Source: Shigella phage ESh25
Length of the DNA: 64,000 nt
Sequence record: ON528735
Direction: 5' to 3' (one strand)
A program made the position numbers and the translations under genes. The notes beneath the pieces are model-generated. The model worked only from the letters and a program-made list of their open reading frames with translations, was not told the origin of the DNA and did no database searches. This document shows, one piece after another, positions 29,239-30,640 of this stretch (positions within the stretch are counted from its first letter, which is position 1; each line of letters begins with the position of its first letter).

Positions 29239-29314
29239 TGGTCGAGGCAGTAGGAATCGAACCTACGACCTAGGACTTAGAAGGTCCTTGCTCTTCCTTC
29301 TGAGCTATGCCTCG
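29239..29314 (-). tRNA. tRNA-Arg: tRNA-Arg (anticodon TCT)
   Basis: Cloverleaf folded by hand: 7-bp acceptor, anticodon loop CTTCTAA, T-loop TTCGATT, encoded CCA. Confidence 0.9.
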
Positions 29315-29318
29315 GATT

Positions 29319-29393
29319 TGGCGGACGTGATAGGATTCGAACCTATAACCAATCGCTTAACAGGCGATCGCTCTGCCATTGAGCTACACATCC
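29319..29393 (-). tRNA. tRNA-Asn: tRNA-Asn (anticodon GTT)
   Basis: Cloverleaf: acceptor GGATGTG/CACGTCC, anticodon loop CTGTTAA, T-loop TTCGAAT, CCA encoded. Confidence 0.85.
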
Positions 29394-29397
29394 AAAT

Positions 29398-29484
29398 TGG
29401 TGGGGAGTGGTGGAGTCGAACCACCCGAGTCGCAATGACAATGGATTTACAGTCCACACCGCTACCTCTACGGGATAACTCCCC
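29398..29484 (-). tRNA. tRNA-Tyr: tRNA-Tyr (anticodon GTA), long variable arm
   Basis: Cloverleaf: acceptor GGGGAGT/ACTCCCC, anticodon loop CTGTAAA, variable arm GTCATTGCGAC, discriminator A, CCA encoded. Confidence 0.85.
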
Positions 29485-29493
29485 AAATTAATT

Positions 29494-29568
29494 TGGTGGC
29501 CCTGGGTGGAATTGAACCACCATCTGGCGATTATGAGTCGCTTGCTTGAACCTTCCAGCTACAGGGCC
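29494..29568 (-). tRNA. tRNA-Ile: tRNA-Ile (anticodon CAT, lysidine-type) or Met
   Basis: Cloverleaf: acceptor GGCCCTG/CAGGGCC, anticodon loop CTCATAA; T4 tRNA-Ile carries a CAU-type anticodon. Confidence 0.85.
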
Positions 29569-29569
29569 T

Positions 29570-29646
29570 TGGTGCTGATTGACGGAATCGAACCGCCGAC
29601 CTTCTCATTACAAGTGAGTTGCTCTACCTACTGAGCTAAATCAGCA
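29570..29646 (-). tRNA. tRNA-Thr: tRNA-Thr (anticodon TGT)
   Basis: Cloverleaf: acceptor TGCTGAT/ATCAGCA, anticodon loop CTTGTAA, T-loop TTCGATT. Confidence 0.9.
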
Positions 29647-29650
29647 AAAC

Positions 29651-29740
29651 TGGCGGAGGCGATAGGATTTGAACCTATGAGTCGCCGGAGCGACTGCCGG
29701 TTTTCAAGACCGGTGCATTAAACCACTCTGCCACGCCTCC
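29651..29740 (-). tRNA. tRNA-Ser: tRNA-Ser (anticodon TGA), long variable arm
   Basis: Cloverleaf: acceptor GGAGGCG/CGCCTCC, anticodon loop CTTGAAA, long variable arm. Confidence 0.9.
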
Positions 29741-29746
29741 AAATAT

Positions 29747-30355
29747 TTATATATTGTTAATTTGATTTAGAATTCTTTTTGCTTGAGTATGACTTACGCC
29801 AATATGCTTAGCATATTTAGATAATTCACCCCGCTTAGAAAAATCATATAATTTAGAAATTTCTATTCTTCTTTTTCTTTCATCCGCAGAAACTTTTGCT
29901 TCGTTTGCTTTTGCTATTTTACGTTTAGCTTCTTGAGAATGAGTTTTACCAGCAAAGCCATTTTTCATTAATCCATTTGAAGACCATCCTTTTAATTTTC
30001 CGTTAGAATGTGCCTTTTTAACACCCAATGAAATTAATTCGCGTTGCTGATCTGTCATAGGATAATTATTTATATGATCCCATCCACCTTCACCTCCAAG
30101 TTTTAAATTATACACATCTGGTCTATTTAAAAACTCTTCTGTGACAATATTTTTCTCGGCTTCAAGCATAGATTCTTTATCATCAAAATACTCTAATATT
30201 TCTTTAGAAAAATTTTCTATGCCATATTTATCTTGGGCTCTTTTTAATAATTTACCAGAACCCATATATCCATCATCTAAATTTTCGGTAGAATGCACAC
30301 CAATATAAATTTTATTATTAATTTTATTTGTTATTTTATAAAGATAAAAATGCAT
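29747..30355 (-). CDS. segB: GIY-YIG homing endonuclease (SegB-like) embedded in the tRNA array
   Basis: GIY-YIG motif (YLYKITN...IYIGVHS) near N-terminus; likely start ATG 30355 with AGGGA Shine-Dalgarno (longer ORF runs to 30397). Confidence 0.8.
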   Translation of the reverse strand: MHFYLYKITNKINNKIYIGVHSTENLDDGYMGSGKLLKRAQDKYGIENFSKEILEYFDDKESMLEAEKNIVTEEFLNRPDVYNLKLGGEGGWDHINNYPMTDQQRELISLGVKKAHSNGKLKGWSSNGLMKNGFAGKTHSQEAKRKIAKANEAKVSADERKRRIEISKLYDFSKRGELSKYAKHIGVSHTQAKRILNQINNI

Positions 30356-30400
30356 ATCAGTCCCTAATAAAGAACTGAGCGTCTCACGACGAGTCATAAA

Positions 30401-30474
30401 TTGGAGCGGATAATGAGAATCGAACTCACATCATCAGATTGGAAGTCTGAGGTAATACCATTATACGATATCCG
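30401..30474 (-). tRNA. tRNA-Gly: tRNA-Gly (anticodon TCC)
   Basis: Cloverleaf: acceptor GCGGATA/TATCCGC, anticodon loop CTTCCAA, T-loop TTCGATT, CCA encoded. Confidence 0.9.
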
Positions 30475-30479
30475 CAAAT

Positions 30480-30566
30480 TTGGTGCGAGAAGTGGGACTC
30501 GAACCCACAAGGAAATCATTCCGCAGCATTTTAAGTGCTGTGCCTTTACCAATTTGACCATTCTCG
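30480..30566 (-). tRNA. tRNA-Leu: tRNA-Leu (anticodon TAA), long variable arm
   Basis: Cloverleaf: acceptor GCGAGAA/TTCTCGC, anticodon loop CTTAAAA, T-loop TTCGAGT, CCA encoded. Confidence 0.9.
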
Positions 30567-30567
30567 C

Positions 30568-30640
30568 GCTGGGAATAAAGGACTCGAACCTTTGCATCTA
30601 GCAGTCAAAGTGCTATGCCTTACCAACTTGGCTAATTCCC
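30568..30640 (-). tRNA. tRNA-Gln: tRNA-Gln (anticodon TTG), CCA not encoded, 1 nt from tRNA-Leu (dimeric precursor)
   Basis: Cloverleaf: acceptor TGGGAAT/ATTCCCA, anticodon loop CTTTGAC; 3' end abuts tRNA-Leu 5' end. Confidence 0.9.

Follow-up and report, generated by a model that had tools for sequence, protein, structure and literature searches.

The nine tRNA genes on the minus strand of a 64,000-nucleotide stretch of Shigella phage ESh25 (sequence record ON528735; the whole 64-kb stretch is called the window below) very probably form part of a standard T-even stable-RNA cluster in the arrangement of phages RB18, RB51 and ECML-134, one that has been shaped by homing endonuclease cassettes and whose tRNAs both meet codon demand and buffer the phage against host defenses. 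The order of the cluster is Gln-Leu-Gly, a SegB-like cassette, Ser-Thr-Ile2(CAU)-Tyr-Asn-Arg, rnaD, rnaC and a terminator-like hairpin. tRNA-Tyr and tRNA-Asn, both lacking in T4, plausibly serve codon supply and defense buffering alike. The nine-tRNA set itself, the presence of Tyr and Asn tRNAs in T-even phages (2008) and the defense role of T6 tRNA-Tyr (2026) are all known already.

Results

The array is an ordinary T-even cluster

ARAGORN, run over the whole window, called nine tRNA genes between 29239 and 30641, all on the minus strand, and assigned an anticodon to each (Table 1). All nine belong to the tRNA family by the Rfam RF00005 covariance model, which recovered the same genes above its 29-bit gathering score, eight of them at 59-74 bits and tRNA-Tyr, with its long variable arm, at 30.3 bits. 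A first-pass annotation, which had folded nine tRNAs by hand from the letters alone, is thereby confirmed in its coordinates, count and anticodons, and all nine genes held under covariance-model scoring. It was likewise correct, within the 64-kb window, that Tyr and Asn are present and Pro absent relative to T4, and what it said of the T4 set is right (eight tRNAs, Gln, Leu, Gly, Pro, Ser, Thr, Ile and Arg, with neither Tyr nor Asn). Neither ARAGORN nor the RF00005 model found a tRNA-Pro anywhere in the 64 kb. When the tRNAs were folded singly by minimum free energy, the z-scores were weak and tRNA-Tyr formed no cloverleaf; because such folding was uninformative, our gene calls rest on the covariance model and on homology. 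As an observation on the gene finder, the annotated tRNA-Thr of T6 (2643-2717 of the T6 excerpt) was missed by ARAGORN, which called the neighboring tRNAs.

The window is that of a Tequatrovirus, and the cluster in it is an ordinary T-even tRNA and stable-RNA cluster. Its identity is about 98% with ECML-134 and SholemSchwarzbard, and 96% with RB51 and RB68 (ECML-134, PhiZZ30, RB51 and RB68 are all Tequatrovirus), and the 1.7 kb around the array has matches in 953 phage records. The synteny of the cluster is the T-even one, with the trna.2 side upstream, the tRNAs on one strand, and rnaD and rnaC downstream. The same nine tRNAs, with a SegB-like gene replacing tRNA-Pro, are found in RB51, RB68, RB18, ECML-134 and PhiZZ30; ECML-134 and PhiZZ30 are collinear with the window across the 1.7 kb at about 98%. 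The nine-tRNA set is already annotated in RB51 and RB68, the RB68 annotation also placing a "truncated SegB-like protein" after Gly and before Ser, and Tyr and Asn are annotated in RB3 and T2 as well. RB51 and RB68 differ from the window in carrying another tRNA-Asn allele and an extra 351-bp open reading frame (ORF) between tRNA-Arg and rnaD. That ORF is also seen in teqhal (2291-2641) and T2 (3050-3400; in RB68 it is 1634-1984, all in excerpt numbering), and it is absent from the window, RB3 and T4.

RB3, RB1 and T2L (AJ884578, AJ884577, AJ880101; PMC2330249) share with the window the order, and nearly the sequence, of Gln-Leu-Gly and of Ser-Thr-CAU-Tyr-Asn-Arg-rnaD-rnaC. In 2008 Brok-Volchanskaya et al. 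reported tRNA genes for Met(CAU), Tyr, Asn and Arg in these phages (PMC2330249). Positions 1-285 of RB3 are collinear with window 30681-30397 at 96.5%, and 366-1217 with window 29741-28890 at 98.4%; within the latter, region 28890-29242 is 98.4% identical to RB3, where rnaD is annotated. The intervening 80 bp of RB3 (286-365), which hold five spacer bases and the whole of tRNA-Pro, are absent from the window, which has 655 bp in their stead. RB3 thus places tRNA-Pro between Gly and Ser and has no endonuclease gene, whereas the window has a seg cassette there.

Besides four identical tRNAs (Table 1), T4 shares with the window a near-identical tRNA-Thr and the flanking trna.2 and rnaD/rnaC; it differs in having tRNA-Pro, and in having segB between Ile and Arg where the window has Tyr and Asn. 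BLAST against T4 returned three blocks: window 31200-30397 (trna.2 through Gly, 94.5%), 29741-29557 (Ser, Thr and the first 12 nucleotides of the CAU tRNA) and 29242-28890 (the CCA of Arg, rnaD and rnaC, 92.9%). The breakpoints are therefore 30397, 29741, 29557 and 29242, one of them lying 12 nucleotides inside the CAU tRNA gene. Past nucleotide 12 the CAU tRNA is not orthologous to T4 tRNA-Ile, and tRNA-Arg has, in the BLAST comparison, no homology to T4 tRNA-Arg except for its CCA; it is collinear with the tRNA-Arg of RB3 and T2. The CAU and Arg(UCU) tRNAs of the window thus have the anticodons of T4, yet the T4 genes are unlike them in sequence.

No two of the RB3, teqhal, T2, T6 and T4 arrays are alike, and an endonuclease gene or another ORF stands at several of the points of difference. 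RB3 carries ten tRNAs (Gln Leu Gly Pro Ser Thr CAU Tyr Asn Arg); teqhal has the RB3 set plus His; T2 is without Thr and has an ORF after Ser; in T6, segB stands between a Gln Leu Gly Thr CAU Tyr run and Arg; and in T4 it stands between a Gln Leu Gly Pro Ser Thr Ile run and Arg, with rnaD and rnaC following.

Table 1. Features of the tRNA and stable-RNA cluster, listed in the direction of the minus strand
Feature	Coordinates	Strand	Support
ORF of 95 aa, T4 trna.2 homologue, upstream of the array	30739-31026	-	T4 alignment, 94.5%
tRNA-Gln(UUG)	30568-30641	-	ARAGORN, Rfam 66 bits; identical to T4 tRNA-Gln
tRNA-Leu(UAA)	30481-30567	-	ARAGORN, Rfam; identical to T4 tRNA-Leu
tRNA-Gly(UCC)	30402-30475	-	ARAGORN, Rfam; identical to T4 tRNA-Gly
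Homing-endonuclease cassette, 655 bp	29742-30396	-	Replaces 80 bp holding tRNA-Pro in RB3 and T4
SegB-like GIY-YIG gene, 202 aa from MHFYLYK	29747-30355	-	Pfam GIY-YIG and NUMOD3
tRNA-Ser(UGA)	29651-29740	-	ARAGORN, Rfam; identical to T4 tRNA-Ser, plus encoded CCA
tRNA-Thr(UGU)	29570-29645	-	ARAGORN, Rfam; aligned with T4 and E. coli thrU
tRNA(CAU)	29494-29568	-	ARAGORN, Rfam; most likely tRNA-Ile2 (predicted lysidine, reading AUA)
tRNA-Tyr(GUA), long variable arm	29398-29484	-	ARAGORN, Rfam 30.3 bits
tRNA-Asn(GUU)	29319-29393	-	ARAGORN, Rfam 74 bits
tRNA-Arg(UCU)	29239-29314	-	ARAGORN, Rfam; sequence differs from T4 tRNA-Arg(UCU)
rnaD homologue (species 2 stable RNA)	29118-29237	-	102/119 bases identical to T4 rnaD, local alignment over 29234-29118
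rnaC homologue (species 1 stable RNA)	28973-29111	-	136/139 bases identical to T4 rnaC
Terminator-like hairpin and T run, end of the stable-RNA cluster	28899-28922	-	Pattern scan, consensus match only

The terminator-like hairpin has a 10-pair stem with 7 G-C pairs, followed by TTTTTGGTATA. A scan for sigma-70 promoters gave 9 matches against 7.3 expected from shuffled sequence, and we make no promoter claim.

T4, not the window, is the unusual case

We counted GenBank/RefSeq records, duplicates included, with at least 80% of the query covered unless stated. The Gln-Leu-Gly block is present in 446 records and the Tyr+Asn pair in 395, so that the oddity implied when the first-pass annotation singled out the pair against T4 is an artefact of taking T4 as the reference. 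The tRNA-Asn allele of the window occurs in 351 records (316 at 99% identity or more), tRNA-His in 344, and the window's own seg variant in about 55. T4-type tRNA-Pro was found in 248 records at 95% identity or more and in 102 more at 90-95%; among the matches listed, the latter are phages of about 136-139 kb such as FV3, one of them labelled Vequintavirinae. Pro, Tyr and Asn are joined in one place in at least 189 records, a lower bound since arrays like that of T2 fall into two places, an ORF separating tRNA-Ser from the CAU tRNA. A figure of about 206 records with Tyr and Asn but without Pro (395 - 189) was dropped, since 189 is only that lower bound.

For the tRNA array, T4 is a minority state and probably a derived one. 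Tyr and Asn are probably ancestral to the common T-even array, which RB3 would preserve intact, a view that rests on gene arrangement and not on a phylogeny. Many close relatives of the window phage have a tRNA-His(GUG) between Asn and Arg (2117-2192 of the teqhal excerpt), and T4-like phages of Klebsiella and Enterobacter are among the 344 records with tRNA-His. Traffic also seems to extend beyond these phages. The window tRNA-Tyr is 96.7-98.9% identical over 91 nucleotides to the tRNA-Tyr of unrelated phages of about 136-142 kb (RudolfGeigy, bov25_3, phiWec196 and others), T4 tRNA-Pro matches phages of about 136-139 kb (FV3, HdK5 and others) at 90%, and bov25_3 matches both Pro and Tyr. Such similarities suggest that coliphage families exchange tRNA genes.

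A SegB-like chimera stands in the place of tRNA-Pro

The breakpoints of the seg cassette are the same against T4 as against RB3. Its gene joins the catalytic domain of SegB to an unlike C-terminal one; the first 100 or so residues are close to identical to those of T4 and T6 SegB. The N-terminus is identical to T4 SegB at 97 of 117 residues, with no similarity beyond about residue 100; 275 nucleotides of seg DNA are 98.5% identical to T4 segB, and a 46-nucleotide leader is common to the window cassette and to T4 and T6 segB. The N-terminal stretch MHFYLYKITNKINNKIYIG is identical to that of T6 SegB, and the protein has Y17 and G19, the residues altered in described catalytic mutants of the T6 enzyme (PMC13096335). 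The C-terminal half carries a NUMOD3 motif and is unrelated to the C-terminal domain of T4 and T6 SegB; it recurs at 95% identity or more in 55 records, RB18 and RB51 among them. To the eye, this C-terminus looks helix-turn-helix-like. We rejected SegB proper as a name for the gene, its C-terminal DNA-binding domain not being that of T4 or T6 SegB; judged from its sequence, the window enzyme is a SegB-like chimera whose DNA-binding domain would have been swapped, and a new target site is therefore predicted for it. An in-frame ATG lies upstream, at 30397, but seg probably does not start there. A 9-bp hairpin, TCAGTTCTT-TATT-AGGGACTGA (30357-30378, minus strand), ends just before the start codon at 30355 and may regulate how the endonuclease message is translated or processed.

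Published work on T4 offers a mechanism for such replacements. The preferred 27-bp site of T4 SegB lies inside the tRNA-Asn gene of T2L, RB1 and RB3, SegB cleaves also at the 3' ends of other tRNA genes, and in mixed infections SegB homing swaps the Met(CAU)-Tyr-Asn-Arg block for the T4 version (PMC2330249). The tRNA-Asn gene of the window is 100% identical to those of T2, RB3 and teqhal, and it holds the sequence that is the preferred site in T2L, RB1 and RB3. In each of the window, T4 and T6, the seg cassette starts directly after the 3' end of a tRNA gene, after Gly in the window and after Ile or Tyr in T4 and T6. In T4, the segB cassette would have replaced the CAU-Tyr-Asn-Arg block, with loss of Tyr and Asn; the two tRNAs are missing from T4 because its segB cassette occupies their position. 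In the window phage, a related cassette would have replaced exactly the 80 bp that carry tRNA-Pro. Which tRNAs an array has or lacks would thus depend largely on the movement of homing endonucleases at tRNA gene 3' ends. Extending the SegB homing results, and those on T6 tRNA-Tyr discussed below, to the window phage is a step that we infer by analogy.

The tRNAs match what the phage genes demand

Codon use in 70 ORFs called mechanically from the window (17,773 codons, 35.6% GC) was set against that of 41 ORFs in a 50-kb sample of E. coli K-12. Among amino acids, enrichment is highest for Tyr (1.72-fold) and Asn (1.64-fold), followed by Lys (1.62-fold), while Pro (0.76-fold) and His (0.63-fold) are depleted relative to the E. 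coli sample. In absolute terms AAT has the largest excess of any codon (+33 per 1000) and TAT the fifth largest, and 9 of the 13 codons of largest excess are read by phage tRNAs. Every other tRNA of the array reads a codon that is over-used 1.6- to 8-fold; ATA is over-used 5.8-fold. Matching supply to demand predicts Tyr and Asn, and predicts Pro as the most dispensable, and the first-pass suggestion that the extra pair supplements codon usage is strongly supported by the excess of both codons and amino acids. With the array tRNAs the phage would thus have its own means of reading codons that are far commoner in its AT-rich genes than in those of the host.

The CAU tRNA is most likely an isoleucine tRNA

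ARAGORN labelled the CAU tRNA as tRNA-Met. We distrust this label because the established tRNA-Ile of T4 receives the same one. The acceptor end is G1:C72. A C1:A72 mismatch marks bacterial initiator tRNA, and an initiator tRNA-Met is excluded because the window gene has G1:C72 instead. Among 5,423 E. coli genomes the best match is an annotated tRNA-Ile (81.6%, full length), the stem-loop GCGA-CTCATAA-TCGC is that of ileX, and C4:G69 and C5:G68 are present as in ileX, where metT instead has T4 and A5. Pairs 4:69 and 5:68 are major identity elements for E. coli TilS (PMC11947777), and we rejected the tRNA-Met label on the ileX match at these pairs. On sequence grounds the gene is most likely a tRNA-Ile2 with a predicted lysidine, rather than a tRNA-Met; together, the stem-loop, the TilS pairs and the best E. 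coli match lead us to prefer the hand-made Ile assignment over the program's.

tRNA-Tyr and tRNA-Asn in relation to tRNA-targeting defenses

Host tRNA-Tyr is known from the literature to be cleaved by two defenses, Septu and Retron-Eco7, and the evidence that a phage-encoded copy helps comes from a near-identical allele. The window tRNA-Tyr is identical to that of T6 at 86 of 87 positions, the sole difference being a G-C pair that replaces a G·U in the anticodon stem. During T6 infection, Septu EcB88 (PtuAB) cuts tRNA-Tyr within its variable loop at C48/A49; northern blots of T6 tRNA-Tyr have been shown; overexpressed T6 tRNA-Tyr rescues T6 plating on Septu; a T6 mutant without the tRNA region is more sensitive; and T6 escape mutants carry SegB-dependent tandem amplifications of tRNA-Tyr and segB (Chihara et al. 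2026, PMC13096335). T4 has no tRNA-Tyr and is unable to escape Septu, and T2 is resistant (PMC13096335). Retron-Eco7 leaves the tRNA-Tyr of the T5-like phage SP15 uncut, and inhibition requires that tRNA's variable loop (PMC12673091); host tRNA-Tyr expressed from a strong phage promoter also rescues (PMC11555353). The window gene has the same variable and T arms as T5 tRNA-Tyr (9341-9428 of the T5 excerpt), the 3' halves of the two are identical, and the variable arm differs from that of the host by a 2-nucleotide insertion. By analogy with these systems, tRNA-Tyr plausibly buffers the window phage against variable-loop nucleases.

The likeness to the T6 anti-Septu locus extends beyond tRNA-Tyr to the N-terminal catalytic domain of Seg and the 46-nucleotide leader. 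The arrangement differs. The 718-bp unit amplified in T6 consists of tRNA-Tyr and the segB gene directly downstream of it, whereas in the window seg lies between Gly and Ser; T6 is also without tRNA-Asn, tRNA-Ser and tRNA-Pro, and the C-terminal domain of its SegB is unlike that of the window.

For tRNA-Asn the hint of a defense role comes from one base. The closing pair of the anticodon stem is C31-G39 (U39G), where host asnT has A-U; after the loop, the window reads U-A-A-G39-C-G, T5 U-A-A-G-U-U and the host U-A-A-U-C-C. The nuclease AriB of the PARIS system cuts Lys(UUU), Thr(UGU) and, with lower efficiency, Asn(GUU); the cut falls between positions 40 and 41, beside U36-A-A-U39, and U39A abolishes its cleavage of tRNA-Lys (PMC12409363). 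tRNA-Asn is absent from the first PARIS paper (PMC11464382); the data are in the follow-up just cited. tRNA-Thr(UGU) of the window reads U36-A-A-U-G|A41, a C40G change at the cleavage site, against U-A-A-U-C|A in host thrU. Tequatrovirus has two tRNA-Asn alleles, the common G39-C-G form of the window and the U39-C-A form of RB51 and RB68 (UAAUCA; 2084-2158 of the RB68 excerpt), and the latter is the motif that AriB cleaves best. The window thus shares with the anti-defense tRNAs of the T5 family, which act against Retron-Eco7 (tRNA-Tyr) and against PARIS (tRNA-Lys, -Thr and -Asn), the variable and T arms of Tyr and the G39 of Asn; T5 has about 25 annotated tRNA features against nine in the window, which is without a tRNA-Lys. 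From U39G at the AriB determinant, a defense role for tRNA-Asn is suggestive only.

Discussion

We favor the view that one tRNA supply meets two needs, decoding the AT-rich genes of the phage and, through the same molecules, buffering translation against host defenses that would destroy specific tRNAs. It is possible to read the array more simply, as matching codon and amino-acid demand only, with any anti-defense effect incidental. Tyr and Asn as the most enriched amino acids, AAT and TAT first and fifth by excess, the over-used codons read by the other tRNAs, the missing tRNA for an under-used amino acid, and Tyr and Asn anticodon loops identical to those of the host are all what such a reading would lead one to expect. 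It does not account for the greater Septu sensitivity of T6 deleted for its tRNA region, for the escape conferred by a higher dose of tRNA-Tyr, or for a Tyr variable arm that is shared with T5 and set apart from the host by its insertion, in the region relevant to Retron-Eco7 inhibition in SP15; nor are the tRNA-His of relatives and the absence of tRNA-Lys driven by demand. We consider it improbable. Still less credence can be given to the other half of the first-pass proposal, in which Tyr and Asn are carried as queuosine-family tRNAs against E5-type anticodon nucleases, either with altered loops or as replacements. Colicin E5 does cleave tRNA Tyr, His, Asn and Asp (PMC1635277, PMC1669751), and close relatives add tRNA-His beside tRNA-Asn although His codons are not enriched in the phage. 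The enzyme needs YGUN at positions 33-36, of which YGU is absolutely required (PMC1635277), and both window tRNAs keep it (UGUA in Tyr, UGUU in Asn). The 7-nucleotide anticodon loops, CTGTAAA in Tyr and CTGTTAA in Asn, are those of host tyrU and asnT, so that the comparison with the host, which the first-pass annotation had proposed as a check, revealed no protective mutation in either loop and no change that would block nuclease recognition; with U33-G34-U35-N36 in place the phage tRNAs should be cleaved too. ARAGORN found neither tRNA-His nor tRNA-Asp in the 64-kb window, and tRNA-Asp is in none of the arrays examined, so translation would still stall. Our literature searches, none aimed at it directly, turned up no E5-type anti-phage system acting on T-even phages. 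On the retained YGUN and the missing tRNA-His and tRNA-Asp we rejected the E5-type mechanism, which is very improbable here. Counter-defense as such stands for tRNA-Tyr, through the published Septu data on the T6 allele; for tRNA-Asn there is the sequence hint only.

That hint can be pushed further, to the proposal that tRNA-Asn and tRNA-Thr(UGU) resist cleavage, as variants directed against PARIS-like Toprim nucleases such as AriB. The target range of AriB, the effect of U39A on tRNA-Lys, the T5-like C31-G39 pair in an allele of 351 records, and C40G at the very site of cleavage in tRNA-Thr would all fit. AriB also reads elements distant from the loop, however, and the proposal meets some of the same difficulties that weigh against our own reading of the array. 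tRNA-Lys, the main PARIS target, is not encoded. T5 tRNA-Lys alone rescues T4 from PARIS with no tRNA-Asn involved (PMC12409363), and tRNA-Asn is therefore neither sufficient nor needed in the T4 case. The RB68 tRNA-Asn allele retains UAAUCA. As a full account of the two tRNAs we regard such resistance as unlikely, though not negligibly so. It is tempting to speculate more broadly that the dominant Asn allele and the Thr C40G variant would be cleavage-resistant forms selected by an AriB-like or other Asn nuclease, that the RB51/RB68 allele would reflect an arms race, and that the Tyr-Asn-His block would be a defense cassette moved by Seg enzymes; drawn as it is from allele comparisons, we hold this to be a long shot. 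Further points tell against a joint role in supply and defense: codon supply leaves unexplained both the tRNA-His of close relatives, in view of the depletion of His, and the missing tRNA-Lys, in view of the enrichment of Lys. Septu EcB88 also cuts T6 tRNA-Tyr, at C48, and wild-type T6 is only partly resistant (PMC13096335); because the T6 tRNA is itself cut, protection of T6 depends on dose. A T6-type amplification unit need not form in the window phage, because its seg gene does not adjoin tRNA-Tyr.

These points notwithstanding, we retain the joint reading of supply and buffering. The link to defense is real in outline, and runs through nucleases that act on the variable loop and the anticodon stem (Septu, Retron-Eco7 and PARIS) and not through E5-type cleavage. 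The lead that remains is the possible resistance of the U39G tRNA-Asn allele to AriB-type cleavage, as its sequence would predict.

In summary, T4 is an atypical reference for this part of the T-even genome, and comparisons made with T4 only overstate the oddity of other T-even arrays. The array described here shows tRNA content shaped jointly by codon demand, by defenses that target tRNAs, and by the traffic of homing endonucleases.

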